DNA from: Minisyncoccota bacterium
GTDB lineage: Bacteria; Patescibacteriota; Minisyncoccia; Minisyncoccales; JAQTPW01
DNA: 64,000 nt
Assembly: GCA_028712565.1 (NCBI GenBank)
Contig: JAQTPW010000001.1
Coordinates: forward strand, 77,114 to 141,113
Direction of reading: 5' to 3'
Position numbers and translations under genes: made by a program. Positions 45,522 through 61,900 of the stretch are shown here, piece by piece; position 1 is the stretch's first letter; each line of letters starts with the position of its first letter. The notes below the pieces were generated by a model that was given only the letters and a program-made list of their open reading frames with translations, had not been told where the DNA came from and searched no databases.

Positions 45522-45566
45522 TAAAATTGGTATAATTAGTATAAATTAGTATATTTGCATCGAGTT

Positions 45567-46511
45567 ATGAAAATTGTTTTTATCGGAACCCCGGAATTCG
45601 GAGCAGTTATTTTAGAAGAGCTTGCAAAAACAGATTACAGGCCGGCTTTGGTCATAACCGAAACCGATAAACCCAAAGGCAGAAAGCAGATTATCACTCC
45701 CCCGCCGGTTAAAATTGTAGCGGAAAAATACGGCATTTCTGTTTTGCAGCCAGAAAAAATTATAAATTGCAAAAATGAAATTGAAAAACTAAGGCCAGAT
45801 TTAATAATCGTTGCGGCTTACGGACAAATTTTACCAAAAGAAATTTTGGAAATTCCAAAATATAGGTCCATAAACGTTCATCCATCTCTTTTGCCAAAAT
45901 ATCGCGGTCCTTCCCCTGTTCAAAATGCTATTCTAAACGGAGACAAAGAAACGGGAGCAACAATTATGTTAATGGATGAAAAAATGGATCACGGTCCGAT
46001 TTTAACGCAAAAAAAAGTTCCAATTGAAATAAATGAAAACGCGATACAGCTCCATGAAAAGTTGGCAAAAATTGGGGCAAAACTTCTTATAAATACAATC
46101 CCCTCTTGGGTAACTGGCGCAATTAAACAAATAATTCAAGATGAAAAAATGGCAACCTATACAAAAATTATCAAAAAAGAAGATGGAAAAATTGACTGGA
46201 AAAAACCAGCAAAAGAAATAGATAGGCAAATCCGGGCATTTGACGATTGGCCGGGAAGCTATACGTTTTTTAAAAACGGCGACAATTTAATAAGGCTAAA
46301 AATTATAAAAGCTGGAGTTTTGGCACAAACACAGCATGGCCCTTTTGGTGTGCCGGGAAAAACATTCATGGCAACCAACGAAGAAATTGCCGTTCAAACC
46401 GGAAAAGATTATTTAATAATCAAGGAATTGCAACCGGAAGGTAAACGAAAAAAGGCCGCAAAAGAATTTTTAAAAGGCCATACTAAATTTATTGGAATAA
46501 TTTTTGAGTAA
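45567..46511 (+). CDS. fmt: Methionyl-tRNA formyltransferase
   Basis: MKIVFIGTPEFGAVILEEL...SINVHPSLLPKYRGPSP motifs. Confidence 0.9.
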   Translation: MKIVFIGTPEFGAVILEELAKTDYRPALVITETDKPKGRKQIITPPPVKIVAEKYGISVLQPEKIINCKNEIEKLRPDLIIVAAYGQILPKEILEIPKYRSINVHPSLLPKYRGPSPVQNAILNGDKETGATIMLMDEKMDHGPILTQKKVPIEINENAIQLHEKLAKIGAKLLINTIPSWVTGAIKQIIQDEKMATYTKIIKKEDGKIDWKKPAKEIDRQIRAFDDWPGSYTFFKNGDNLIRLKIIKAGVLAQTQHGPFGVPGKTFMATNEEIAVQTGKDYLIIKELQPEGKRKKAAKEFLKGHTKFIGIIFE

Positions 46512-46536
46512 AATTATTTCTTTGTTTTATAAAAAA

Positions 46537-46578
46537 TAAGCTGGTGGAAATTACCCACCAGCTCTTTGTTTTTGTTTG
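46537..46578. terminator. Bidirectional rho-independent terminator
   Basis: agctggtgg aaatta cccaccagct with T runs on both strands. Confidence 0.7.
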
Positions 46579-46585
46579 GAAAAAA

Positions 46586-47134
46586 TTACTTTAGAATTTC
46601 GCCGCCAAAGTATCCAGTAATGCTAGCTTTGGCTTTGATATGGCCGGAAATTGCGGCTTTAAATGCGGTATAATCTGCATTTTCCGCCAATCCCAGCGTT
46701 TCTGTATCCAGCGCATACAAAGTAAATTCATACCGATGCGCCGGGACATTAGCCGGCGTTCCCGGGCCCCCGTAGCTATTTGTCGGCAGTCCGGGCATAG
46801 GCAGCATATTGAAATTATTTTTCAATTCTTTCACTCGAGGCACGAAATTATTTGGACTCGCGCCCTCGGGTATAGCGCGGACAACCGCAGGGATATCCAC
46901 TATTATCCAGTGGATAAACAGATTGTCTGGCAATGTGCCTTTAGGTGGCAGCATGCCTATCCCGGGGAATTCCGTTCCCCATGGAATATCTAGGTCCGCC
47001 ATTATAATGGCGAAACTTTTTGTTCCCTCGGGAACGGCGCTCCAAATTAATCTTGGAGACTTATTTCCTCCGGCAAGCCCGCATTTTTCGGGTATTCTGC
47101 CCATATCACTAAAATTTCCAGACCTCAGCTCCAT
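46586..47134 (-). CDS. YbhB/YbcL family PEBP (Raf-kinase-inhibitor-like) protein; GC-rich relative to its neighbours
   Basis: SPRLIWSAVPEGTKSFAIIMADLD...HRYEFTLYAL pattern; 182 aa. Confidence 0.8.
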   Translation of the reverse strand: MELRSGNFSDMGRIPEKCGLAGGNKSPRLIWSAVPEGTKSFAIIMADLDIPWGTEFPGIGMLPPKGTLPDNLFIHWIIVDIPAVVRAIPEGASPNNFVPRVKELKNNFNMLPMPGLPTNSYGGPGTPANVPAHRYEFTLYALDTETLGLAENADYTAFKAAISGHIKAKASITGYFGGEILK

Positions 47135-47253
47135 AGCAGCCCTCCTTTTTTTAAAACTAATGCTTCTATTTTTAGAAGCATCTCTTGCTAACTATAAAAA
47201 AAGTGGATGATTTTGTCAATCACGTTCCAAAAAGAAGTTGCATAAAATCCATC

Positions 47254-48939
47254 TTATTTTAACTCTTTTTCAATGTCTTCTATTTCTTTTCTGATCGCAT
47301 CTTCAGAACTCTTTAGGAAATAAAACAATCTGTCTCTTAACTTCTTTTCATCAGGACTTAAACCCGGCTTTGAGTCAAAATATTCAATTCTTAATTCCAA
47401 ATCTTTTCTTAATTTTTCAAAATTTTTCTTCAAACTTTCCGCGGCTTCCCGTGTTTCTTTTATCAAACGGTCTTTTTCTTTTCTATTTTTCCGAAGAATA
47501 AGAAGAATTAGGAATATCGCCATTAAAATCAAAAGGACAATTAAAGCCGAGAAAAAAGTGGAATAAGTGAATATGAAGGGGCCAATCGCAATCCCAGACA
47601 AAATCACTTTAACAGAATAAGATGGTGAAGGATTGCTTATGGCTCCTTTTGCGTTTCTTGTTCTGGCATATAACGCATAGTTTCCGGATTTTAAAAACTC
47701 TTCGGTTGTAAAAGACCAGTTTCCATCTTTATCGCTTTTGGCTTCCCAATTTTTAGCTTTATTTTCCTTGCTTTCTAAAAATATTAAAATTGTGGAATTA
47801 GGCAAAGCAGTGCCTTCTATGTAAAAAGTATCTTTTCCAGAAATGTAAGTTTTTGGATAAATTAATATTTTTGGCGGTTCAATTGATTCAACTTCCAAGA
47901 TTGTTTCAGATTTTACGGTATTGCCGGCTTTATCAAGGGCTTTTATTGTAATTTCATAAGTTCCGGGCGACTGAAAGGGCACATGATAAGGATTTGTGTC
48001 AGCCGGCACTACCGAAAAAGTGTCTTTGTCATCAATCTTTATTTCGTAATGGCTAATTCCCGACAATTCGTCTTTTGCTTCAAAATATAAATCAGGGTTT
48101 GGGTTTGCCAGATCCCCTTCGTTGTCAATTCTAATATCAAATGACCCGGGAGATTTTGTATCAATCTGAACCCGGTAATGCGCAGTTTCGCTCCAGCCAA
48201 CATTGTTTTGCACCTTTAAATGGAAATACCAGATTCCATCTTCAGTTTTTTCAAACTTCTCTGAATTAAAAATGCCTTCTGATTTTTGTTTTGGCTGGGT
48301 TTGCGACTTTTGGTCAAATTCAGTTGAAACTCCGATAATTTCTGAAGAGATATTCCATAGAAATTCCGGATTTGAATTATTATACCAGCTATTTTCTTTT
48401 GGATGCGTGTTCGAACTAATTTTTGGTTTTTCTGGCAACCCCGGCGTTACTGGTACGCCTTTTTCTATTTTATAATTTCCATCAGAAACGCTAGTCAAAA
48501 TGTCTGTTCCTCGGCCGTCCGCGGCCAAAACTAACGCATCAGAAATTGAAACCTTGGCAGTTCCTGAAACTTTCCCGCGGAAATTAACAACCAAAATGGT
48601 TCCAACTCCGGTAAATCCGGGAGCCGGCACTCCGCCGCCATAAGTAATTTTTCCTTGTGAATTTGAAAAAACCGGCTCTTCTGGCCAAAGCTGGAATATA
48701 GAGCCGGACTTTGACACGCTGACTACTTCCAATATATTTGCCGGAAATGAAATTGTGGCTTTCGACGCGTTTATTGGGGCACCATCGCTGTCTACTTTAA
48801 TTTTTACCGAAAACTGGCTGTAAACCTCATAGTTTCCCGCCGCAGGTTCAAAAAACAGCGATGCATTGGCAGCTTTTATTTCAGTTGCTGAAAAAAGGAA
48901 AATTATTAAAAATGACAGAACAAAAGCTAATTTTTTCAT
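47254..48939 (-). CDS. Surface protein: signal peptide, cohesin-like N-terminal module, Ig-like domains, C-terminal TM anchor and a charged coiled-coil tail (paralog 3 of 3)
   Basis: 561 aa; the N-terminal ~140 aa module is shared with the two upstream genes; the start overlaps the upstream stop. Confidence 0.6.
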   Translation of the reverse strand: MKKLAFVLSFLIIFLFSATEIKAANASLFFEPAAGNYEVYSQFSVKIKVDSDGAPINASKATISFPANILEVVSVSKSGSIFQLWPEEPVFSNSQGKITYGGGVPAPGFTGVGTILVVNFRGKVSGTAKVSISDALVLAADGRGTDILTSVSDGNYKIEKGVPVTPGLPEKPKISSNTHPKENSWYNNSNPEFLWNISSEIIGVSTEFDQKSQTQPKQKSEGIFNSEKFEKTEDGIWYFHLKVQNNVGWSETAHYRVQIDTKSPGSFDIRIDNEGDLANPNPDLYFEAKDELSGISHYEIKIDDKDTFSVVPADTNPYHVPFQSPGTYEITIKALDKAGNTVKSETILEVESIEPPKILIYPKTYISGKDTFYIEGTALPNSTILIFLESKENKAKNWEAKSDKDGNWSFTTEEFLKSGNYALYARTRNAKGAISNPSPSYSVKVILSGIAIGPFIFTYSTFFSALIVLLILMAIFLILLILRKNRKEKDRLIKETREAAESLKKNFEKLRKDLELRIEYFDSKPGLSPDEKKLRDRLFYFLKSSEDAIRKEIEDIEKELK

Positions 48940-50258
48940 TTTAACCCCTTTAATTCTTCTTCTTGTTTTTGAATTTCTTCCTGTTTTTTAATTAATCTTA
49001 TTTTTAATTCGTTTTGTTTTTTCTTTTTCTTTCGGTTTATTCCCAATAAAATCCAGATGACCGACACCAAAATCAGGAAAATTATTAGAGAAATCAGCCA
49101 CCAAGGCAAAAAGAATCCCCAAAAAAATATGCCTTCTCTTGTAATATATATGCCGGCGGGAATGATTTGAATTTGCAAAGTTTCGTCTTGCCAGTTGCCC
49201 GCCGCATCAAAAGCGCGGACGACAATTAAATACTTTCCAACCGATAGCTCGGGCAACTTATAGGGGCTTGCGGTTTCCATAAAAAACGCTGTTTCTTTTT
49301 CTTGCCTGCCCGGAGTTATATCAATTATTTTTGTTTCAAAATGGTCAAAGCCAGACAAAGCATCGGTTGTAATAAATGAAATAATTGGATTTTTTGTTGT
49401 TGTTTTTTCTGCCGGGCTGGCATTTGGTAAAAACGACGCCGGCGGAGTTGCATCTATTTGCACTAAATAGTGGGAAATTCCTCCCCAAACATTGGCTTTT
49501 TTCGCTTTAATGTGGAAATAAAAGATCCCGTCCGCTAAATTTGAATAAGAAACTGAATCAATATCTCCCTCTGAATTGTTATCGGGAATCCCCTGGGGAT
49601 CATTGTCTATGCTGTAGCTGAATTCGGCAACGCCTTCGCCTTTTACCCACGCAAAAGTTGGATTGTTGTTTTTATACCATTTGTTTTGGTCAGAATGAGT
49701 TGGAGAAAAAACTTCCGGGCCTTCTGGCGGAGGTATAGTTAAGCTGTAAACCCCTCTGCCCATAGACGATAAAACGTTTGTGCCTTTTCCGTCATCCAAA
49801 AGAATTTTTGAAGTGTCTTGAAAATAAATTGTAGTATTTCCCGGAGAAACGGCGCGAAAAGTGATTGTAGAAACCAATCCAGCAGAAGTATTGATTCCGG
49901 GAGAAGGCATTCCTCCCTGAAAAGAAGCGGTCCCTTCGGAATTTGAATAGGCGGGCTGGGCAACCCAGACAGAAATAAAAGATTTTCCGGCTGTCGGACT
50001 GGCAATCTGCAGCTTCTTGGGATCAAATTTTAAATCCGCCTGAATTGCGTTAATGTTATTGCTGCCGGTATTTACAAAAATCGAAACATCAAACGTATTT
50101 CCCACATAAAATGTCCCGGAATTCGGAGAAAGATAAAAGGAAGCGCCAGTAGCATAAACATTATTCGCAGATATTAAAAAGCAAAAATTAAAAATCAAAA
50201 ATAACACCGCTAGAAAAGTGAAAAATATCTTTGATTTTATTTTAGGAAAAAACTTCAT
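48936..50258 (-). CDS. Surface protein with cohesin-like N-terminal module, TM anchor and KKKKKQNELK...coiled-coil tail (paralog 2 of 3)
   Basis: 440 aa; LKFDPKKLQIASPTAGKSFISVWVAQPAYSNSEGTASFQGGMPSPG aligns with the other two paralogs. Confidence 0.6.
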   Translation of the reverse strand: MKFFPKIKSKIFFTFLAVLFLIFNFCFLISANNVYATGASFYLSPNSGTFYVGNTFDVSIFVNTGSNNINAIQADLKFDPKKLQIASPTAGKSFISVWVAQPAYSNSEGTASFQGGMPSPGINTSAGLVSTITFRAVSPGNTTIYFQDTSKILLDDGKGTNVLSSMGRGVYSLTIPPPEGPEVFSPTHSDQNKWYKNNNPTFAWVKGEGVAEFSYSIDNDPQGIPDNNSEGDIDSVSYSNLADGIFYFHIKAKKANVWGGISHYLVQIDATPPASFLPNASPAEKTTTKNPIISFITTDALSGFDHFETKIIDITPGRQEKETAFFMETASPYKLPELSVGKYLIVVRAFDAAGNWQDETLQIQIIPAGIYITREGIFFWGFFLPWWLISLIIFLILVSVIWILLGINRKKKKKQNELKIRLIKKQEEIQKQEEELKGLK

Positions 50259-51172
50259 TTAATTATTTTTTTGCGTTCTTTTTTTCTATATACTAACCAG
50301 TAAATCGCAAATACGCCAAAGATTAGTAAAGTGATTATTAAATAGAAACTTAATCTTTTGGACGGGACTAATTCGGAAATTCTTTCGTTTCCGGCCTTAT
50401 CAATAGCTTTCACAAATATCCTGCTTTTTAGTTTTTGATCTTCCAGAAGATAGGGGCTCTGCCCTATTTTCCAATCGCCATTCCCCTCTTTTATTTCGTA
50501 ATGGTCAATTCCAGTTTGCGCATCAGTTGTAAAGAACGCGATGAAATATTTTCCCGAAAATGCGACTTTGTCTTTCCCTAATTTTATTTCAAAATTTTCT
50601 GGGGGCGCTTTATCTTCGGAAATTTTTTCTTCCCATTCATTTTTTACGGTATCGGATGTTTTTAATAAAATTGTAAAATTTGCCGCCGAAAAATTCAGTT
50701 TATCGGGAGTTCCCGAACCATCATTTAATAAAACTTGCGAATCGCTGTTGAAATTTATTTGGGCAATAGCGGAATTTACGGCGCGGAAAGCTAATGAAAC
50801 CAATTTTCCATCGCCGGAAAATCCTCCGGGCACCCCGCCAATAAATGAAATTTCACCTTCGGTATTTGAAAATGCCGGACTTTTTGGCCAAAGCGTTAAA
50901 ATCGATTCTCCGGTGCTTATATCTACAATTTGCAAATAATCTTTTGGGAAACCTATGTTAATCCCGCACGTGTTAATATTTTCGCCTTCTGCATCTAGTC
51001 TTACGTCAACAATAAAAGTATCCTCGTTTTGATAAGTCCCGCTATCGGAAGAAAAATATAATGTGGAGGCTTTCAAAAACGAAGGATTTAGAATATAGAA
51101 TCCAGCAAATAAAACAAATGAAAGCAAGGTGCAGAATCGCCAGTTTATAATTTTTAATTTTTTATTTTTCAT
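50255..51172 (-). CDS. Surface protein with cohesin-like N-terminal module and C-terminal TM anchor (paralog 1 of 3)
   Basis: 305 aa; INIGFPKDYLQIVDISTGESILTLWPKSPAFSNTEGEISFIGGVPGG. Confidence 0.6.
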   Translation of the reverse strand: MKNKKLKIINWRFCTLLSFVLFAGFYILNPSFLKASTLYFSSDSGTYQNEDTFIVDVRLDAEGENINTCGINIGFPKDYLQIVDISTGESILTLWPKSPAFSNTEGEISFIGGVPGGFSGDGKLVSLAFRAVNSAIAQINFNSDSQVLLNDGSGTPDKLNFSAANFTILLKTSDTVKNEWEEKISEDKAPPENFEIKLGKDKVAFSGKYFIAFFTTDAQTGIDHYEIKEGNGDWKIGQSPYLLEDQKLKSRIFVKAIDKAGNERISELVPSKRLSFYLIITLLIFGVFAIYWLVYRKKERKKIIK

Positions 51173-51179
51173 TTTTAAT

Positions 51180-52142
51180 TTATTTCGTCCAATAATACAT
51201 CATTATTGAGAAGTCTATTAAATCTACTATACCATCATGATTGATATCCGCACAGATGTTTGCCGGTTTTTTCTGATGCCAATAATATAAAAGTATAGAA
51301 AAATCAACTAAATTTACCTTTCCGTCAAAGTTCAAATCAGCCCCTTTGCAGACCATGGCCCCCTTTTTTACAACCAAAAAAGACATTGTTTGCGAAAACG
51401 AGCTTTGTTCGCCAGCGCCAAAAGCCGCTTTGGCTCTTGCTTCATGTCCGCTTTCTTCCAACGGAGTTGTGTCTAATTTATAAGACCATTTGCCATTTGC
51501 AGAAGTTGATGCATTTTTTACGATTTCATTTGAAGCGACAAAAATACTTACTTGGCTTGCCGGGAAGGATTGGCCATAAATATCAACTGGATTTCCTTTT
51601 TCCACTTGGGTGGGACCCAAATCAATTGTAGGTGCTAAAAAAATTCCCGAAACCGTTGTGGTTCTGTCAGCCAAAACGCCAACGCTAAAACCTATGGTTA
51701 CAGACCTTCTTCCATCAGTATCCTCGGCAAAAATTGAAAAATTATAATTTCCTGCGGCAATGCTTTGAATTGTTCTTTCAAATAAACCGGAGTTTTCTGC
51801 GCGAAAAGTGGCAGCAATTGCTCCATTCTTCATTAAAGTTAAAACAGCTTGCGGATATGCTCTTCCTTTGAAAATAACTTTAGTTTCCGGCGACACATAC
51901 GAAGTTCCGCCGCCGCCGCCTCCCCCGCCTCCGCAATTTCCGCAATCTACCGGGCAGGTTGCACAAGTTTCTCCGCCGTTGCAGGACGTATCTCCGCAAT
52001 AAGGCGAGGGAGTTGTTGTTGAGCTTTGCACAACTGCGCTTACAGTAATATCAACTTCCTGTGCAAAAACAAAAACTGGAAAAAGCATTAAAATAATTCC
52101 AAAAAGAAAAACAGTTATTTTTCTAAAACCAATCCCGTGCAT
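51180..52142 (-). CDS. Secreted Cys/Gly-rich protein ending in a tandem dockerin type-I module
   Basis: C-terminus ADLNFDGKVNLVDFSILLYYW ... ADINHDGIVDLIDFSIMMYYW gives two DxNxDGxV(N/D)xxD calcium-binding repeats; signal peptide; G9 run. Confidence 0.7.
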   Translation of the reverse strand: MHGIGFRKITVFLFGIILMLFPVFVFAQEVDITVSAVVQSSTTTPSPYCGDTSCNGGETCATCPVDCGNCGGGGGGGGGTSYVSPETKVIFKGRAYPQAVLTLMKNGAIAATFRAENSGLFERTIQSIAAGNYNFSIFAEDTDGRRSVTIGFSVGVLADRTTTVSGIFLAPTIDLGPTQVEKGNPVDIYGQSFPASQVSIFVASNEIVKNASTSANGKWSYKLDTTPLEESGHEARAKAAFGAGEQSSFSQTMSFLVVKKGAMVCKGADLNFDGKVNLVDFSILLYYWHQKKPANICADINHDGIVDLIDFSIMMYYWTK

Positions 52143-52253
52143 TTACGTATTTTAACATCCTCTTTTAAAATTTACGAGTGGAAAATGCGAACGAAAACAA
52201 AAACCGTCCCCAAATTTATTAAAGGGCGGTTTCATTGCAAAGAAAAAAAATAG

Positions 52254-53195
52254 TTAATATCTCTCCCCCCGAACTAAAATTTTTATTGCCGAAATCAGCC
52301 TGTTTCTCATTAAAATCAAAATTATAATACTCGCCAATATTATTAATCCGAATTTCCAAGGGAAAGCCCAAAATGTAATCACGACCGGAACCAAAGAATT
52401 TTCAGAACCATAGGTACCTGTAATTGTTGCGGTATATTTTCCAGCCCAAAACCATTTTTTATCCAAGACAGCATCGAATTTTCGCACTGCGCGAGGCAAA
52501 ACATTTTGTTGTTTTATCGTCGCAACGCCAACTTTTTGTCCAAGCCAATTCGTAACCGTAACCATGGCCAATGGCCGCACGTGAACATTTCCTAAATTTT
52601 CGAATTTAGCATTAAAATAAACCGGCCCGTATTCAAAATAAGGAATAGTGCTGGAAACATAAAAATCTTTAACAGCCAAAAATTCTTTCATTTTGCCGGG
52701 CGTGGTCAATAAAACCAGTGTTCCAATTCTTGTAACAAGCGCGGTGCCTGTAATATTAGACCCTGCAATTGATGCGCTGGCAGCCAAGACAGTTCCATAA
52801 TGGCCGCCGGGCTCAGCATTATTAGGAATTGTAATCGAAAAACTTACCCATTGGGATTGCCCGGGCTCCAAGACAAATTCATTTGGAGTGCATTTTATCC
52901 AGTTTGCCAACGAATAGGTTTCTGTTTCGGCCGGTTCAGGAATTACATAACCTGCTTCGCCAGTGGGCGCTATATCTTCAACAGCCATTTTAATACCGAC
53001 CTGGCTATCGCTGGGGTTTGAAATTTTTACCTGATTTTCAATTACTTCACCAGGGTTTCCGGTCAATTCAAAAACTGTCGGAGATACAGCGATAGTAGTT
53101 GCAGCATTGATAACCTGCCTATTGCAAAATCCGAATAAACACACACCCATCAAACAAATGATGAGCCATCTTCTCATAATAAAAAAATATACCAC
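52254..53195 (-). CDS. Membrane-anchored surface protein, DUF916-like (paralog of the C-terminal part of 54384..55931)
   Basis: Signal peptide; SPTVFELTGNPGE...AEPGGHYGTVL...FWAFPWKFGLIILASIIILILMRNR C-terminal TM; family assignment is from memory and uncertain. Confidence 0.45.
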   Translation of the reverse strand: MVYFFIMRRWLIICLMGVCLFGFCNRQVINAATTIAVSPTVFELTGNPGEVIENQVKISNPSDSQVGIKMAVEDIAPTGEAGYVIPEPAETETYSLANWIKCTPNEFVLEPGQSQWVSFSITIPNNAEPGGHYGTVLAASASIAGSNITGTALVTRIGTLVLLTTPGKMKEFLAVKDFYVSSTIPYFEYGPVYFNAKFENLGNVHVRPLAMVTVTNWLGQKVGVATIKQQNVLPRAVRKFDAVLDKKWFWAGKYTATITGTYGSENSLVPVVITFWAFPWKFGLIILASIIILILMRNRLISAIKILVRGERY

Positions 53196-53214
53196 GAAAA
53201 TAAGTGGTTGTAAA

Positions 53215-53847
53215 CTAGGATGCTGGAAGCAGGGTAAAGTCTATTGTATCAGTGTAGGTTCCTGCTGTTTTCTGATTAGACGTAGTTGCTTTAAATCTTA
53301 CATCAATTATCTGACCAGACTCTGGCACTCCATTCGTTGCCAAGGTTTGTGCGGTTGTCGAAGCAGTTCCAACTATTTGAAGAGGTTCATTATCCCAATA
53401 ATTATATATCGGGTCAATAGTTGCGTCGCTGGAACTTGCCTGGACCCCATAGCCGTCAGTTCCGATTTCAATAGTAGTGCTTCCCGAAGCGTGACTTGCA
53501 ATAGATGTTGCATTATAGATTAATGCGGCATTATCGCTCTTAACAGTCAGACTAAATCCATCATCGTGGTTTGTTCCGCATGTTAGAGTCACGATTTGGC
53601 TGGTACCTGTTGCAAGATTTCCCGATGTATCAACTAGGGCGGGCAAAATTGCAACGCTTGTTGTAGAGCCAGTAATTGAAAGCCATTCAGAAACTGTAGC
53701 TGTAACAGTTACGGAAGTAGCGGCAGCTAAAGCATTATTTGTTGACGGCTTCATTCCGAATAAACTAACAACGCCCACGATTGCCAAAACCAACCCAATA
53801 AATAAAACTAGATTTATTTCCCAATTCTTCTTAATTCTTTCTGCCAT
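53215..53847 (-). CDS. Secreted WxL-domain-like protein
   Basis: N-terminal TM/signal; SEWLSITG near the N-terminus and C-terminal GTYTDTIDFTLLPAS resembling the Y.GTLTWTL.D.P WxL motif; 210 aa. Confidence 0.4.
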   Translation of the reverse strand: MAERIKKNWEINLVLFIGLVLAIVGVVSLFGMKPSTNNALAAATSVTVTATVSEWLSITGSTTSVAILPALVDTSGNLATGTSQIVTLTCGTNHDDGFSLTVKSDNAALIYNATSIASHASGSTTIEIGTDGYGVQASSSDATIDPIYNYWDNEPLQIVGTASTTAQTLATNGVPESGQIIDVRFKATTSNQKTAGTYTDTIDFTLLPAS

Positions 53848-54006
53848 TCTTATTAATTTTTAGATTGATTTTTAATTTCTACCCCTCGACCTGTCAGGTA
53901 GTTTTTATACTTTGTTTATTATAGCATAAAAATTCATGTCAAGCTGTGGAAAAGTCAAAAGGATATCAAATATCAAAAATAAAATATCAAATAGGCATTA
54001 ATGGCT

Positions 54007-54402
54007 TCAAGCAGAATTTCTTTTTCCTTTCAATGTAAGAATACTTGAAGCAAAGATGCGGGAAATTTCTGTAAGTTCATTTAGCAACCATTCTGTTTCC
54101 ATAGTTTTATCATAATTCAAATCTTTTAAAATTGCCAGCCAAACTTTGCTTTCATTTGCGGATTTTAAAGAATGATTAAAAAAATTCGTATAATCTTTTC
54201 GTGAACTGGCCGCTTTTCCCTCGATATAATTGGCGAGAATGCTTGTCCCGCTTCTCACTAATTGGTCTCCTAAAATTCGTGTTGTTCTATTTTCAGGTAA
54301 TTTATCAACAAAACGAATGAGTCGCAGAACAAATTGATAAAGTCTTCGTTTAAAATCTTCGCTTTTTGAAAAATCCCGTTTGATCATATTTTTCCAGCCC
54401 AA
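54007..54402 (-). CDS. Four-helix-bundle protein (TIGR02436 / intervening-sequence-type protein)
   Basis: RTTRILGDQLVRSGTSILANYIEGKAASSRKDYTNFFNHSLKSANESKVWL is the hallmark of this family; 131 aa. Confidence 0.75.
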   Translation of the reverse strand: MGWKNMIKRDFSKSEDFKRRLYQFVLRLIRFVDKLPENRTTRILGDQLVRSGTSILANYIEGKAASSRKDYTNFFNHSLKSANESKVWLAILKDLNYDKTMETEWLLNELTEISRIFASSILTLKGKRNSA

Positions 54403-55931
54403 GGTTGGTCCGCCTTGGGCGGAGATTTTTGATTTTTAAGATTTGATTTAAATATCATTCGTACTGCTGCAAAAATCCGTTTCCGCAATAAAATCAAAAT
54501 GCCCAAAGCAAATGTGATTATTAAGATTATTTTCCACGGGAAAATCCAAAAGCCTAATGTTTGATTTAATTCTATTTGGTTTTTTTCTTCTTCTAATTCC
54601 AATACTATTTTATATTTACCAAAAGAATTATTTTGGTAAATAAAATTAGAAAGGAAAGCAGGCAGCCATTTTATTTTATTCGCTGGAATCTCAGAAAAAC
54701 TGACTGGGAATTTGCGGATTTTCCCGGGCAAAATTGTTGTTTTTTTAACTTCTGACTCCCCTACTTTTTTCCCAAAGGAATTATAAACTAAAATTTTGCC
54801 GTTTAGTTTGTGATGATAAATATCATTATTTTTAATCCGCAAAATTACAGAATCCGGAGTTTTTTCAACGATGCTTACTTCAGCTGCTTGGACTCCGGGA
54901 ACCACATCAACTAAACTTGCCATAACTTTTCCCAAATTTTGCAAAGTTTTTTCTTTTGGGATTTTGAATTCAACAATCTCAACTAAATTTTTAGATTCTA
55001 AAGGTTCAAGCGAAAAAACTCTAACCGATATTAAAAATAAAACTCCGACAATAGGAACGGTTTTTGGCTGGCCTTCTTTAAAATAAAACGAAGGAAGTTG
55101 GGGTTCAAAAAGAATTACCGAATAATGGCCGCCGGGCTCGGCTTCTTTTGGGATTGAAATTTCGAAATTTATAACTTCGGTTTCGTTTACGTCTAAAATA
55201 AAATCTGCTTTTTCAAAATTAAACCATTTTCTTGAGGCAATTGAAATGTCTTGTGAAGCATCATCAAATTCCATTTCTCCAGAATCGTCTTTTGCGGTAA
55301 AATCCGTAGTTCTTATAGAAATAGGAAGCGGGACATCGCTTAGATTTTTGACATTTATTCTCCTGATAATTTTTTCTCCGGGGAAAACTTCCAATTCAAA
55401 AACTTGAGGAGAGACAGACAAACCAAGTTTAGCTACACCTTCTGCTTTTGCTGTAATGGGGAAAAATAAATTAGCCATTATATAGAAGCTGATGAACGCA
55501 GATAGCAACGCTGATTTACGCTGAAACGTTTTTTCTCTTGCCTTATCATAAATTCTTCTTTTTATTTCCAATTTCTTTGGTCCGAAGTTTATTAATAACC
55601 CCAGCTTATATTTTGAACCTTTGAGGTATAACCAAAATTGTCTCTCATCTTCTCGAGTTAAAAACGGCTTGCATTTAATTTCTAACAAAACAGCATTATT
55701 GATAATTTTATCGGGAACATATGAGGCAATTTTCTTGTCCCGAAAATAAACGTCTATTATTTTTTGACTTTCTACATTTAAGCCGAGATTTTTTAGTTCT
55801 ACATTTAAAGCCCTATCAACAACCTTTTCTTTAAATGCTCCGCCAAATTCTTTCCATACTTCAAAACACGCTCCTCTAATTAAGTAGGTTTCTTTTTCAT
55901 AAAGAAAATCTTTTACAATTTTTTTATCCAT
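54384..55931 (-). CDS. In-frame fusion ORF: N-terminal GxxExxY-family module (~140 aa) followed by a DUF916-like membrane-anchored surface protein
   Basis: N-terminus LIRGACFEVWKEFG...KYKLGLLINFGPKKLEIKRRIY (GLLINFG hallmark); remainder is paralogous to 52254..53195. The GxxExxY part lies inside a TIR-bounded element. Confidence 0.5.
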   Translation of the reverse strand: MDKKIVKDFLYEKETYLIRGACFEVWKEFGGAFKEKVVDRALNVELKNLGLNVESQKIIDVYFRDKKIASYVPDKIINNAVLLEIKCKPFLTREDERQFWLYLKGSKYKLGLLINFGPKKLEIKRRIYDKAREKTFQRKSALLSAFISFYIMANLFFPITAKAEGVAKLGLSVSPQVFELEVFPGEKIIRRINVKNLSDVPLPISIRTTDFTAKDDSGEMEFDDASQDISIASRKWFNFEKADFILDVNETEVINFEISIPKEAEPGGHYSVILFEPQLPSFYFKEGQPKTVPIVGVLFLISVRVFSLEPLESKNLVEIVEFKIPKEKTLQNLGKVMASLVDVVPGVQAAEVSIVEKTPDSVILRIKNNDIYHHKLNGKILVYNSFGKKVGESEVKKTTILPGKIRKFPVSFSEIPANKIKWLPAFLSNFIYQNNSFGKYKIVLELEEEKNQIELNQTLGFWIFPWKIILIITFALGILILLRKRIFAAVRMIFKSNLKNQKSPPKADQPWAGKI

Positions 55932-55993
55932 ATTTTTTATCAGCGTTTTTCTTATCAGCGTTTTTCAGCGTTGGTATCAGCGTTCATCAGCTT
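55486..55993. mobile_element. About 508-bp MITE-like element carrying the GxxExxY ORF, bounded by terminal inverted repeats
   Basis: aagctgatgaacgcagata (55486-55504) versus the reverse complement of tatcagcgttcatcagctt (55975-55993), 18/19 identical, with extended imperfect similarity to ~40 bp; atcagcg(tt) is iterated at the right end. Confidence 0.5.
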
Positions 55994-55999
55994 ATATTT

Positions 56000-58900
56000 T
56001 TAGTAGTTTGCCGTACATGTTAAATATATTGTTCCTTCGTAAACGTCGGCTTGCTGGGTTGAAGCCACTGATGCCTTTAATATAATTGTGTTATTTTGCC
56101 CGCCGCCAGAAGAAGTGTCGGCAACAGTATCTACTGCTTCGATTGTCGTGGCAAAACCTGACCAGCAAAGATCCGAGCCGCAAAAAGTAGTGCTGGCATA
56201 CCGGTCATAATTTGTGTCAGAGCCGGCAAGAGAAAGATCGTCCGTGTTGTATCCGAATCCGCATCGAGTGGAACTCGCATTGCAATTTTCATCCCAAGCA
56301 ACTGGACTAATATTGTTATAAGCAAATCTTTGAATATAAACGCTTTCAGTTGTTGATGATAATTTTCCTTCAGTATCCCGCATATCAGCTGTGATTGTAA
56401 ATCCGGTAGGATAAGATGTTGTGGCAAGTAATGTTATAAATGAAGTCGCGGTAAAATCATTGCCCTGGTTTAAAGTTAGATCAATTTGATCTGTGCTGAT
56501 TTCAAACTGTAAATCAGATGTCAAACCGACATACCAAGATCCCATTTCGGGCGGCGCATCCAGGCCGCTATATGGCGGGGAGCCATTCATTGAGGAGTTT
56601 GTTTGCCTGTGCCACCCAACATATATCGTATTATCTTGCGCTTCCAAGCTTGAAGTTGAAGTCAAATATTTATTACCTTGATCTAAGTAGTAATCATAGT
56701 CGCTAAATCCAAGAACCGCAACGGTTAAATTATAGTTGTATGTAGTTGTTGCCGAAGACGTTCTTTTGTATTCCCTTATTCTTATTGCGCCGGCAGAAGT
56801 TGGCTGCGGAGTTTTACCGCCGCTACTTGTTGTTGCAACTGCGCTATCTGTCGCATCTCCCCAACTTCCTGCATTGTAACTCCAAATAGTGCTAGAGCCC
56901 GAAACTTCAGAAACAGTACAGGTTGCATTTTCAATATTTACATCCGTATCATTTGCATCAACAGCGTGAATTCCTAAATACCAATCAACATATAAGGTTC
57001 CTCCAGTTACCGAAACGCCGCCGGTTTTTGCATTAAGAAAAGTAGGAGTGCCAGCTTGAACAGTGGTCGTTGAAGGGGCGGTAGAAGTGCCGTCAGAATA
57101 TAACCATTCGCCGCCCGTTCCGTTAAAATTAATTTTATAAAATGGAGAACCGCCATCTGAAATTGTATGGCCTGAATTTGTGGCAATAAATATTATTTCT
57201 CCGCTGTTGTGTGTGAAAGCGCCGGGTAAAGTTACGCTCCAATTACCGCCAACTGATAAAATTGTGGGTGCGGTAACTGCGCCATTTGTAATTGTAAAAT
57301 TATTTGATGTCGAAGCATCATCTTGGAAAGCCCAAGCCCCTCCCGAACCATTAAAGGTTAGATTATAGAAAGCAGAACCACCGCTTGTAATTTTTTGTCC
57401 GGCTGCAGTACCATCAAAGGTTACAGTAGAAGAAGCTGCGGTAAATGTGCCGGAGTTTTCCCAATTGCCAGCTACGGTTATTGCGGAGGTTGAGGCGACA
57501 AAAACTGCTGAAGCAGTAATAGTTGTGCTTCCATTTACATCAATTATTGGATTATATAAATTTGCCGAAGCCGTAAATGGATTTACAGAGTCGCCAATAA
57601 CAAATTCATTATTAACAACAATAGTCTGGCCAGTAGTAGTCCCTAAATTATAAGTTAAATTTAGATCTCCGACGCCTAATTCCAAATTATAATATGTTGT
57701 TGCAGTAATATTTGTGTCTCCCCAACTTGTATATTTGAAGGTTGATGAAGAGGCATTAAATGAACCGCTGATAGGAAAAGGCGTGTATGGCGCAGTTCCA
57801 GCACAGGCGCCGGCAATAATCCAATCTCTAAAACCTGCATCTAGCCCTTGATTTGCGGCAATTGTCAGATAATTGGATATTGTAGTGGTAGCCGTATTAA
57901 TTGCAGTAGTGGTGGCTTGGGGACCAGAACCATCTCCAAAGGTTAAATCATAAAATGTCCAATCTGTTGCCCCGCCAAACTCGCCGGTACCATCTACCAT
58001 AAATGTTCCGTCTAACCAAGTTAGCGTTCCATCTCCAGTAACATCGCCACCCAAAACATTCATGTCATAGTGGCTGATCACGACGGCTCCTTGAGTAACT
58101 GTCAAATCATTAGTTGTGGTTGCATCATCTTGGAAAGTCCACCAACCACCTCCTGAACCATTAAAATATAAGTTATAGAAAGGTGAACCGCCAGTTGTAA
58201 TTGTTCTAGGTACTGTTGCGTCAAAAGTTGTAGTTCCCGAATTTGCATCAAAATTTCCGGAGTTTGTCCAATTGCCGGCAACAGAAAGAGTGCGAAGGTT
58301 CGATGCAACCGTGGTGGCATTGGCAGACAATGTAAAATTTCCATTTATATCTAAACTCGGATCGTTAGTATCAATATTTACAATAACCTCATTTGTACCA
58401 TCTCCAATTGTTAAATTATTATTGCAGGTAAGAGATATGATGCTTAAAGTATATGTGGGAGTTCCGGCGCCAGACGGTGAAAGATTTAAATTATAATAAA
58501 GAGTAGATTTTATATTGGTATTTGCCGTTGCCGTGTAATAAAACGTCGAAGTCGCCGGGCCAAAGCCGCCATCCAAAACAAAAGGAGTTCCAGAACCCGA
58601 TAACACCCATGATTTTTCTCCGGCGTTCAAGGTTTGACTTGTAGAAACAGTTAAAACATCGGTAATAGTTGTGGTCCCAGTGCTTGTTGCAGTAATTGCA
58701 GTTGAAATACTTCCATCTCCAAAAGTTAAATCATAAAAAGTCCATTCTGATGTCCCGCCAAAATATCCTGAACCATCTACCATAAATGTTCCGCCCAACC
58801 AATTCAACGTCCCATTTCCTAACACATCTCCTCCATAAACATACATATTATATGTACTGGATGCAGTTCCTGCGGTAACGGTTAAATCATTTGTTGTGGT

Positions 58901-61900
58901 CGCATCATCTTGGAATGTCCAGACGCCATTTGAACCATTAAAGGTTAAATTATAGAACGAAGAGCCTCCGGTTTTGATTGTGGTAGTGGCTAAAGTAGAA
59001 GTAAAAGTTACAGTTGAACTTGCCGCATTAAATATTCCGTCATTGTCCCAAATGCCTGATACCGATATATCTTTTGTTGTAGAAGCAGTTATAGTTCCAT
59101 TATTATCAAAATCATGAAGGTTTATTGTGCCAGCAGTAGATGTGGAATAAAACAGAAACGTGCTTCCTGACCTCACAAAAAATTCAGAAGTATCAGAAGC
59201 AGTCAAAGTGCCGGCAGTTGAAGATGCTAAAAATAGAATATCTGCATCTTGTCCAGAATCATAATAATCCAAATCTGAAATATTAAGAGGCGTTGAATCT
59301 TCATGCCGGACAATAATCCTGTTTTGATACAAATCTAAATCAGAAATATTATAATCTGTTGAACTGGCGCGAGTAATTGCATTTGCTTTTTCAGTTTCGC
59401 CATCTAGATATACGGTTAATACGTCACCTACTGCGCCAACCAATACTTCACTTATATTATAACTTCCATCTGCATCCTCACAGGTTCCTGAATAAATTGT
59501 TTCTCCCCCATTTACTTTTAAGTTAACTGTTAAATTATTTCCTGAACAATCATAGGCTCCCGTTCCTTCTTCAGTATATATTACCCCAGAAACAGTAATT
59601 CCGGCGGAGGGAGGGGCAGGAAAAGCATCATATTGTATGCCCCAATAATCAGTTTTTAAATTTTCCGCGCCACCGTCCTGATAAACTCTCCAGAATGTCC
59701 AGAACTCTGCAGTTGTCGTGCCGGCTGAGTCGTTAAATTTATATTCTGGAAAATAATAATCGGAAAGATTAGCGGTGACGGTTCCGTCAATTGTGCAGTC
59801 AGTATTTGCAGTGCAGGCGCTTGAGCTGGCGACAGTTTCCCACAAAGTTGTAGAACTTGAATTTCCAAAACGGAAAATTTGAAGATAAATTTTATTGGAA
59901 GAAGCTCCAACGTTCGATTGCCCGATCCAACGGCTGTAAAGAGAATTTGTATTTGCTGCGTGGTTATCGGTAAAAACAAAAATTGGCGATGATGTGGCAG
60001 TGCTTCCACCCGCGGAAGTTATGCTTGAGGAAGCCGAGCTGTCAGTGGTGGTAGAAATATTTGTATAGTCAGAATTATCAAACCAATAAGTTAGGCCGTC
60101 TTCCGCCGCCGGATTAGCTTCCAAAAACATAGCGCTCGTTGTTGCCGGAGACGCCCACTGGGTTCTTGTTAATTTTATTTGGTTATCGGTTTTTAAATAA
60201 TTGTTAAAATAAGAAATTGCGGTTTGCGGGAGACCTAAACCTTTTGCAATCCTAAGATAAGCATTAGTGTAATCGTAATAAGCAATTATGGGATTGCCGT
60301 CAGCGCCTATAGCAATTGGACAATTTGAATTATTATTTTCATCTGACAGCGAATCGATGGTACCGCAAGAAGCTACGGTACAGGTAGCGTTGGTGCAATT
60401 ACAAATTCTCAGATTATTAATAGAATCACTGCAACTAGAAATTACAGGATTATTATCGTAACCTATTGCGATTGAATTGTAATGACTGCTGCTGATTACA
60501 GAACATGTAGCAGCTGTACAAGTTTGCGTTTTACATTTGCAGACCCCGCCCTGAAAAGAAATAACGGGAAGGCCTTCTGCGCTTATTGCCATTGATGTTT
60601 CAGTATCTCCGCCAGTATAAACCGAACCGCAAATAGCAGAAGTACAGCTTGTGTTTGCGCATTTGCAAACCTTAATTGAATTCTCAAAATCAATATTAGC
60701 TGAATAAGAAATCATTGGAATGCCATTAGTTCCAATCTTAATTGAGCTTCCAGAACCTGCGCTATCGTTATTTGCATCTTTGACTGTATTATCAAGCGTC
60801 GTACAGGTTTTTGTTCCACTGCAAGACGTGTCACTGCAAGAACAAACCGCTAAAGTTGTAGTATTGGTGGGGAAATCGTTTTGATTGCCATCTCGAAAAG
60901 AAATAATCGGATTGCCATCCTGTCTGATAGCAATTGATGTATCATCTGCTTGGCCCCTTGTAGTGGAAATGCTACTACAGGTTTCATCGCCCCCTGTACA
61001 GGCCGGGTCGTTGCATTTGCATACATATAATGTATACGTTCTCACAAAGGATATTACAGGAAATCCGTCGCTGCCAATTGCAATAGATGGATCCCAGTCA
61101 GTACCCGTATCAACTACGCTGCAAAGTTCATCTCCTCCCGTGCAACCCGGGTCATTGCATTTGCAAACTATAAGATCTCCATTAGCATCATTCGTTGAAG
61201 CAATTACAGGTAAGCCATCAAAACCAATAGCAATTGCTGGATACTGTCCATTATATGTTTGAGCTGTGGTTGTGTTGACAGTATTGCAATCAAAAGAACT
61301 CGTAGCGGAACAGCTTGCCGCTAAAGTTAAAACCGCGTCTTTTGAATATCTTTTTGTGTTTGAAGTTTCAGGAACAACAGTTAAGGTTGGATATTGCGAA
61401 TAGCCATCCAAGGCAGTGCCATCGCTGGAAACTAATCTTAATCTATATGTTGTAGAAGCTGTGGCTTCGGAAGTGTCAATCGCAAAAGCAAGTTCTGTGC
61501 ATTTACTGACAGAAAGTGTAATACTGGACGACGTGGCTGTACCTTCATACCACTCGCCATCTTGCCAAGACGTATTTTCAGTACACGCTCCAGTTGAGCT
61601 GGAAGTCAAAGCAGTTGTGCTGGTTCCGGATAATCCCCAAGATGGCTGAAGTTCGTAATTGGGCAGCATTTTGGCAACCCGAAGGTCTTGATTGGTAGAA
61701 TCAAAGTACGAAACGATTGGCCAACCATCCGGTGAAATAGCAATTGAAGTATTTAATCCAACTTCATTAGATGAATTATCTACAACGTACAAAGTATTGC
61801 CAAAAGTGCAAGATGAATTTCCGCACTTTGCAATTTTAAGAACACCCTTTCCTTCGCTTGTGCTGGCATTATAAGAAATTATCGGCAAGCCATCTGTTCC

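Follow-up and report, generated by a model that had tools for sequence, protein, structure and literature searches.

The proteins that anchor cellulosomes to the cell surface use SLH domains or sortase. Among described systems, the anchoring scaffoldins of Acetivibrio cellulolyticus (ScaC, PDB 4UYP), Clostridium thermocellum (SdbA, OlpB, OlpA and OlpC) and Ruminococcus flavefaciens (ScaE) lie near to three surface proteins, CohA, CohB and CohC, which are encoded next to a dockerin protein, Doc, in a putative four-gene operon of a Minisyncoccota bacterium (Patescibacteriota; GenBank assembly GCA_028712565.1, contig JAQTPW010000001.1). The operon occupies positions 47254-52142 of a stretch of 64,000 nucleotides (contig positions 77,114 to 141,113), which is referred to as the window in the following. 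In contrast to the anchoring scaffoldins, the Coh proteins carry one cohesin each, are anchored by a C-terminal transmembrane (TM) helix with a cytoplasmic tail, and have a single dockerin client without an enzyme; moreover, several cohesin proteins accompany one dockerin, and the host belongs to the ultra-small Patescibacteria and gives no sign of cellulolysis. Non-cellulosomal pairs are known from Archaeoglobus fulgidus (PDB 2XDH), from the glycosidase/toxin complexes of C. perfringens (2VO8, 2W1N) and from anaerobic methanotrophic (ANME) archaea, but these are scattered genes with variable architectures, whereas here a fixed operon, Doc-A-(B)n-C, is found across a large radiation and is combined with a cluster that resembles the WxL clusters of Firmicutes. 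The metazoan adhesion family TMEM132 combines a cohesin, Ig domains and a single TM helix (PMC6030884); these proteins are eukaryotic and are not known to have a dockerin partner, and their resemblance to the Coh proteins would be one of architecture only. SEML1_0315 of Southlakia, an essential dockerin protein of a Saccharibacterium, was considered as an ortholog of Doc and rejected; it is encoded by a lone 927-aa gene without cohesin neighbours. In the literature library that was searched, we found no paper that joins dockerin, cohesin and Parcubacteria, or DUF916 with dockerin, and none that describes the Doc-Coh operon.

We propose, with a probability of roughly 0.6, that the products of the four genes form an anchoring module in the cell envelope, a non-cellulosomal one based on cohesin and dockerin, and that this module is part of a larger surface-adhesin locus. 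The domain names of Doc, the Coh proteins and the upstream neighbour DUF916b are already given by NCBI; what is new is their context, i.e., the synteny of the locus, the TM-anchored single cohesins, the lone non-enzymatic dockerin adaptor, the combination with a WxL-like cluster, and the conservation across Patescibacteria.

The three Coh proteins are paralogs that share an N-terminal module of ~140 aa, with 32-37% pairwise identity and BLASTP E-values of 3e-24 and 3e-30 for the CohC module against those of CohB and CohA, respectively. An earlier reading of this DNA, made without database searches (the sequence-only reading), had recognized the shared module and interpreted it as cohesin-like, proposing Pfam models as a check. 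Pfam Cohesin (PF00963) indeed matches CohB (38.4 bits) and CohA (25.0 bits) above its cut-off of 24.1, whereas the module of CohC is assigned as cohesin-like by paralogy; NCBI names the Coh proteins “cohesin domain-containing protein”. The module has the cohesin-type beta-sandwich fold, and cohesins and dockerins are among the top matches of profile searches against the PDB. The cohesin module is the best-conserved region of its protein, with a mean majority fraction of 0.81. CohA consists of a signal, the cohesin (~aa 36-170; nt 50663-51067), one Ig-like domain, a TM segment (272-296) and a short basic tail. In CohB, the signal and the cohesin (aa 36-176; nt 49731-50153) are followed by two Ig-like domains, a TM segment (386-410) and a Lys/Glu helical tail of ~30 aa. 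CohC carries a signal, the cohesin-like module (aa 22-165; nt 48445-48876) and three to four Ig-like domains, including a Big_13 domain (Pfam, E 3.7e-16), ahead of a TM segment at ~462-486 and a charged (Lys/Glu) helical tail of ~75 aa. An AlphaFold2 (AF2) model of CohB from 70 sequences (pLDDT 90.3) shows the signal helix, then three beta domains, the first of them at 39-174, and finally a helix that starts at 386 and reaches the C-terminal end. The C-terminal TM anchor that had been claimed for all three proteins is confirmed by hydropathy and AF2 helices, as is the N-terminal signal. The Lys/Glu-rich cytoplasmic tail likewise claimed for all three is present in CohB and CohC only; CohA is a type-I membrane protein that ends in a basic stub of ~10 residues.

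Doc, the secreted partner, begins with a signal peptide (aa 1-27), an N-terminal beta-strand (28-39) and a Cys-rich motif with a G9 linker (49-79), which are followed by two Ig-like domains and the C-terminal dockerin. The Pfam matches to Big_6 (aa 91-150), Big_13 (190-253) and Dockerin_1 (269-315) are all above cut-off. Dockerin_1 (PF00404) reaches 29.4 bits versus a cut-off of 22.9, in line with the tandem dockerin that had been read from the letters, and the NCBI name of Doc is “dockerin type I repeat-containing protein”; the NCBIfam dockerin_GC model remains below its cut-off (18.3 vs. 29). The dockerin module (Doc aa 265-320; 51183-51350, minus strand) contains two EF-hand-like calcium loops, each followed by a helix: DLNFDGKVNLVD (aa 269-280) leads into FSILLYYW, and DINHDGIVDLID (aa 299-310) leads into FSIMMYYW. 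Both loops comprise 12 residues with Asp or Asn at positions 1, 3, 5, 9 and 12 (D1, N3, D5, N/D9, D12), and both continue as DFSI(L/M)(L/M)YYW. Calcium binding and calcium-dependent folding of the module are predicted from these motifs, which a regular-expression scan found to be unique in the six frames of the window. Among PDB entries, dockerins were matched by the Doc-family dockerin profile at E 0.015-0.1.

A total of 934 Doc homologs was found. In an alignment of 48 homologs, the ligand positions of the calcium loops are mostly invariant, and conservation along the protein peaks in the dockerin, at a mean majority fraction of 0.82 as compared to 0.70-0.74 for the Ig domains. The same alignment shows a near-invariant pair of cysteines, C265 and C297, located four residues ahead of loop 1 and two residues ahead of loop 2, respectively. 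This pair may form a disulfide staple, and we know of no such staple in classical dockerins. The Ig domains of Doc and the Big_13 domain of CohC are not significantly similar in BLASTP (E 0.6).

The N-terminal part of Doc is far more variable, except for its very beginning. The sequence-only reading had characterized Doc as Cys/Gly-rich, which is correct locally, i.e., for the six cysteines at aa 49-70 and the G9 tract, and does not extend to the protein as a whole. The six-Cys motif is not conserved and is missing from most homologs, which carry Pro/Gly linkers, other Cys-rich repeats, FN3 domains or bigger inserts at this position. The mature protein starts with a short, alternating hydrophobic strand, QEVDITVSAVVQ (52026-52061, minus strand), which is followed by a low-complexity linker. 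Alternate columns of this strand are conserved in the Doc homolog alignment and, as judged by eye, an equivalent strand directly follows the signal peptide in the printed Doc N-termini of other loci, regardless of which module comes next. The poly-Gly tract also recurs across the Doc sequences inspected.

All four genes are located on the minus strand: Doc (51180-52142; 320 aa), CohA (50255-51172; 305 aa), CohB (48936-50258; 440 aa) and CohC (47254-48939; 561 aa). This agrees with the four co-directional genes of the sequence-only reading, which had also called them translationally coupled. The CohA/CohB and CohB/CohC junctions are 4-nt ATGA overlaps (50255-50258 and 48936-48939), and the third junction, between Doc and CohA, is a gap of 7 nt (51173-51179); because of the two overlaps and the short gap, coupling is plausible. 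Upstream of Doc, a terminator-like hairpin followed by a U-run (52186-52239, minus strand; fold -16 kcal/mol, z -2.29) lies between the DUF916b gene and Doc, which suggests that the Doc-Coh genes can be transcribed separately from the upstream genes. At the other end, a sigma-70-like site with an 11/12 match is found 3' of CohC, ahead of an unrelated PEBP gene. Taken together, overlaps, gap, upstream hairpin and downstream site make Doc and the three Coh genes look like one transcription unit. The promoter scan yielded no more sites than in shuffled sequence and was given no weight, and no Rfam family was matched in 46000-57000.

To see the operon in a wider context, relatives of Doc were sought in one genome per GTDB species, which gave 278 pattern matches, of which 270 were confirmed and 80 loci were fetched (designated here by L numbers). 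Hidden Markov models (HMMs) were built from our own alignments and run on all open reading frames (ORFs) of the fetched loci (~1.1 Mb), each cohesin was typed by its nearest paralog in the window (A, B or C), and the synteny count was restricted to those 74 loci in which 1.2 kb or more of sequence was available downstream of Doc. One or more genes with a cohesin module directly follow Doc on the same strand in 73 of these 74 loci. The number of cohesin genes ranges from one to five per locus, two being the commonest, and their order is Doc-A-(B)n-C: Doc-A-C in 29 loci, Doc-A-B-C, as in the window, in 11, Doc-A-B-B-C in 10, and Doc-A-B-B-B-C in three, and the other patterns mostly look like truncations by contig ends. 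CohA is the first cohesin gene after Doc and CohC the last in most loci. From these counts, CohA and CohC would therefore be the universal partners and CohB an expandable extra. Each fetched locus contains one dockerin-bearing ORF, namely Doc. The loci stem from many Patescibacteria lineages, among them Nealson-, Uhr-, Falkow-, Kerfeld-, Magasanik-, Jorgensen-, Lipton- and Portnoybacteria.

Four genomes carry two Doc-Coh loci each (L010/L056, L021/L061, L070/L083 and L012/L053), and the paired loci of a genome differ in their Doc N-terminal modules and have divergent dockerins, which is consistent with paralogous and possibly orthogonal plug-socket pairs. The record titles of several loci (L020, L043, L057, L058, L062, L071 and others) name Aminicenantia, Pirellulales or, on TPA MAGs, Gammaproteobacteria or “uncultured Candidatus Saccharibacteria”; such off-group labels are probably binning or labelling artefacts and no evidence of spread outside Patescibacteria. 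By eye, the longer Doc variants of L015 and L028 and the longer “B” protein of L005 (5553-6746) appear to start with an additional stretch of similar sequence that includes ...L(T/S)xxxxT(L/V/I)SDSR...; if real, this would mean that modules have been swapped between the dockerin protein and pilin-like proteins.

The conserved functional unit appears to be about twice as large as the interval 47254-52142, with the Doc-Coh operon making up one half of a larger locus. The other half, upstream of Doc, is likewise encoded on the minus strand. It includes DUF916b (52254-53195), a WxLIP-like membrane protein that combines Ig-like domains with a TM segment near its C-terminus (hydropathy), which NCBI names “DUF916 domain-containing protein” and which matches Pfam WxLIP_PGBD (PF06030) with 29.0 bits against a cut-off of 27.3; among 48 relatives, 46 match PF06030 and one matches PF11797. 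Further upstream lie p210 (53215-53847), a small secreted or anchored, pilin-like protein with a single beta-sandwich domain (aa ~41-208), and DUF916a (54384-55514), a second WxLIP-like membrane protein (WxLIP_PGBD, E 6.7e-4) that is paralogous to DUF916b over its full length (BLASTP, E 1e-27). They are preceded by the gene of a giant surface protein (56000-64000) of at least 2666 aa, the frame of which is open to the end of the window at 64000 and in which no Pfam domain was matched. In an hhalign comparison, the p210 family profile matches the final ~150 aa of the giant protein along its whole length (E 8e-5, probability 61%). An iterated profile finds the p210-type domain right at the C-terminal end of each of 64 ORFs (64 of 64), small and giant ones alike, which range from 173 to more than 2000 aa. 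Sequence-profile searches against the PDB gave chance-level matches only for p210 and nothing useful for DUF916.

This half, too, recurs with Doc. In 57 of 68 loci, the gene immediately upstream of Doc is DUF916-like, and 41 of 50 loci encode a protein with a p210/WxL-like C-terminal domain within 7 kb upstream; at its third round, the iterated DUF916 HMM drifted onto Coh ORFs (70 of 177 hits), and those hits were excluded from the counts. The distant loci L002, L003 and L005 share the order of a giant ORF (2300-3800 aa), genes of ~350 aa, ~210-400 aa and ~305 aa, Doc, and the cohesin genes, while their flanks are unrelated. Two side observations concern these proteins. The upstream part of the giant protein is extremely Gly-rich, with GGGGGG runs ending in ...GAQGVIVVSYTP, and its body contains many repeats of ~45 aa of the type SIAIGxDGYPxISYxDxxxxDLxFAKC...NC. 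Moreover, a juxtamembrane (F)PW(K/W) motif was noticed by eye directly ahead of the TM segment in DUF916b (aa ~275-281), DUF916a (~455-461) and CohB (~383-387).

The closest described counterpart of the upstream half is the WxL cluster of Firmicutes, which encodes a small WxL-only protein, a large one that carries this domain at its C-terminal end, and WxLIP, a DUF916-DUF3324-TM protein whose hairpin is predicted to give a strand that completes the WxL beta-sandwich (PMC10599100). As in these WxL/WxLIP (Csc) clusters, the upstream half comprises a small one-domain protein, p210 being the positional analogue of the small WxL protein, a large protein with the same C-terminal domain, and DUF916-type Ig-Ig-TM proteins, of which DUF916b falls within the WxLIP family by its Pfam score. 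In the more divergent loci, the domain terminates with ...YWG(L/I)x(V/I)P...GxYxGxN(T)F, a W-x-L-like motif. Differences exist as well: two WxLIP-like genes are present, the large protein is a giant of more than 2600 aa, no LPXTG protein was seen, and a cohesin-dockerin operon adjoins the cluster, a combination that PMC10599100 does not mention. Membership of the p210-type domain in the WxL family was considered and dropped, as PF13731 (WxL) matches none of the members tested, and only the analogy is retained.

How might the two halves work together? According to the proposed anchoring module, CohA, CohB and CohC would be exported by Sec and held in the membrane by their C-terminal helix, each holding its cohesin away from the membrane by means of one to four Ig-like domains that act as a stalk. 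The secreted Doc would plug its dockerin, in a putatively calcium-dependent manner, into one or more of these cohesins and would thereby be kept at the level of the wall or the outer surface, with its two Ig domains, the flexible Gly/Pro/Cys linker and the N-terminal strand facing outward. We infer this binding to the neighbouring cohesins because their adjacency is fixed across deep divergence and because both interaction modules are maximally conserved. The Doc-Coh module would then represent the membrane-proximal half of the conserved surface locus, while the C-terminal domains of the giant protein and p210 would attach these two to the DUF916 membrane proteins. The gene of each secreted protein is followed, in the window, by that of a membrane-anchored partner, and both halves together would most likely assemble and anchor a large, variable surface adhesin complex. 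The link between the halves and a role in attachment are putative, and attachment from cell to cell, in particular, is speculation.

Patescibacteria, which also go by the name candidate phyla radiation, constitute a large part of the diversity of bacteria, and those few that have been cultured grow attached to the cells of a host. To our knowledge, the molecules that build the contact surface are largely unknown, except for the type IV pili of Saccharibacteria. The locus provides a concrete and widely conserved candidate for such a surface, combining a membrane-anchoring module, a WxL-like module and a giant variable surface protein. It would also extend cohesin-dockerin biology by a new anchoring mode, i.e., a TM helix plus cytoplasmic tail, and by an inverted stoichiometry, and WxL/WxLIP-type clusters beyond the Firmicutes for which they are described (PMC10599100). 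The Doc-Coh pair is small and conserved in sequence, and it could also serve as an orthogonal plug-and-socket pair for protein engineering.

Several observations weigh against the proposed anchoring module and its place in a larger locus. Pfam Cohesin is not listed for CohC at E≤0.1. Three to five cohesin paralogs per dockerin are the reverse of the cellulosomal ratio. The terminator-like hairpin ahead of Doc implies that the two halves of the locus need not be co-expressed. Furthermore, neither p210 nor 49 of its relatives nor six divergent proteins with the W-G-L motif are matched by PF13731 at E≤1, so that the p210-type domain is termed WxL-like by partner, position and motif only, and not as a family member. 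The unusual ratio (at least three cohesins per dockerin being atypical) also speaks for an explanation in which the domains are genuine and yet unpaired: the cohesins would bind dockerins or other ligands from elsewhere in the genome or from the host, the dockerin of Doc would be a calcium-stabilized structural module or bind a target other than a cohesin, and co-location would merely mirror shared regulation of envelope proteins. Stand-alone dockerin proteins do exist in other Patescibacteria, such as the essential SEML1_0315, which has no such operon. We nevertheless regard this explanation, with both its parts, as improbable in view of the adjacency in 73 of 74 loci in fixed order over deep divergence, the strong conservation of the dockerin in a protein whose N-terminal modules vary freely, and the finding that Doc is the sole dockerin-bearing ORF of each locus.

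In another explanation, the same complex would have a housekeeping role in the envelope, e.g., spacing or tethering the wall or an S-layer to the membrane, instead of being a host-attachment device. The ectodomains of Doc and the Coh proteins are 50-70% identical across lineages, which resembles core envelope machinery more than adhesins, with their fast evolution. The helical tails that CohB and CohC have on the cytoplasmic side hint at a tie to internal structures, and DUF916 has been described as peptidoglycan-binding (PMC10599100). Yet the neighbouring giant protein is poorly conserved and without known domains, its counterpart in L002 has laminin-G/lectin-like domains, as adhesins typically do, Doc varies in its N-terminal modules, and two divergent locus copies in some genomes suggest specialization; a purely housekeeping role is thus rather unlikely. 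A miniature cellulosome, with enzymes for polysaccharide degradation gathered at the cell surface, would be suggested by the system in which cohesins and dockerins are best known and to which the closest solved structures belong. However, Doc has neither a catalytic nor a carbohydrate-binding module (CBM) and carries Ig-like domains only, it contains the single dockerin of the window, and no polypeptide has more than one cohesin. No enzyme was found in the window, and no glycoside hydrolase was noted among the inspected genes of the cluster and related loci. A cellulosome is regarded as practically excluded, because enzyme, CBM and multi-cohesin scaffoldin are all missing from the window and the genes inspected in related loci, which bears out the non-degradative role favoured by the sequence-only reading.

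A more daring extension of the anchoring module, which we put forward as tentative and rather doubtful, assigns a function to the N-terminal strand of Doc, an isolated strand that cannot fold alone. Doc might act as the basal or adaptor subunit in a surface fibre or complex built by strand complementation, in which its strand fills a p210/WxL-like sandwich and its dockerin plugs into the cohesins. The sandwich would have to be incomplete, its carriers being the small protein and the C-terminus of the giant protein. Near systems are donor-strand-exchange pilins, such as the archaic chaperone-usher pili (Csu/CupE, SCPU), TasA-like fibres and the environmental TLP-1 fibril. No usher-like or PapD-family match was found in the cluster, which thus shows neither a dedicated chaperone nor an usher, and the Ig-like nature of the DUF916 proteins alone does not make them chaperones. 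If strand complementation were true, the gene order would read from tip to anchor (giant protein, p210, Doc, Coh), as the monoderm counterpart of chaperone-usher pili and their succession of tip adhesin, shaft and terminator, the anchoring step being provided by cohesin-dockerin. This would be an undescribed way of building and anchoring a bacterial appendage, and a candidate for a host-attachment organelle of Patescibacteria.

The surroundings of the locus offer a few minor observations. Downstream, an fmt-like gene on the plus strand (45555-46511) and a PEBP/YbhB-family gene on the minus strand (46586-47134) converge on a strong hairpin of 11 pairs (46538-46564), which resembles a bidirectional terminator and marks the downstream boundary of the neighbourhood. 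On the upstream side, a GxxExxY/PD-(D/E)XK gene (minus-strand ORF 55542-55931; Pfam PDDEXK_3, E 3e-27) lies between the arms of a 43-nt inverted repeat (55482-55524 and 55955-55997; 86% complementarity), and all four copies of ACGCTGAT in the window sit in these arms. The gene looks like a small inserted cassette that reads in frame into DUF916a, with which it forms a joint ORF (54384-55931, 515 aa). Small genes of the 23S-rRNA-IVP (four-helix-bundle) and PDDEXK_3 types are found in the window (54007-54402), L002 (7036-7422) and L005 (4019-4411), occupying different intergenic positions of the surface-protein cluster in each lineage, which suggests that such genes were inserted into this locus repeatedly and independently.

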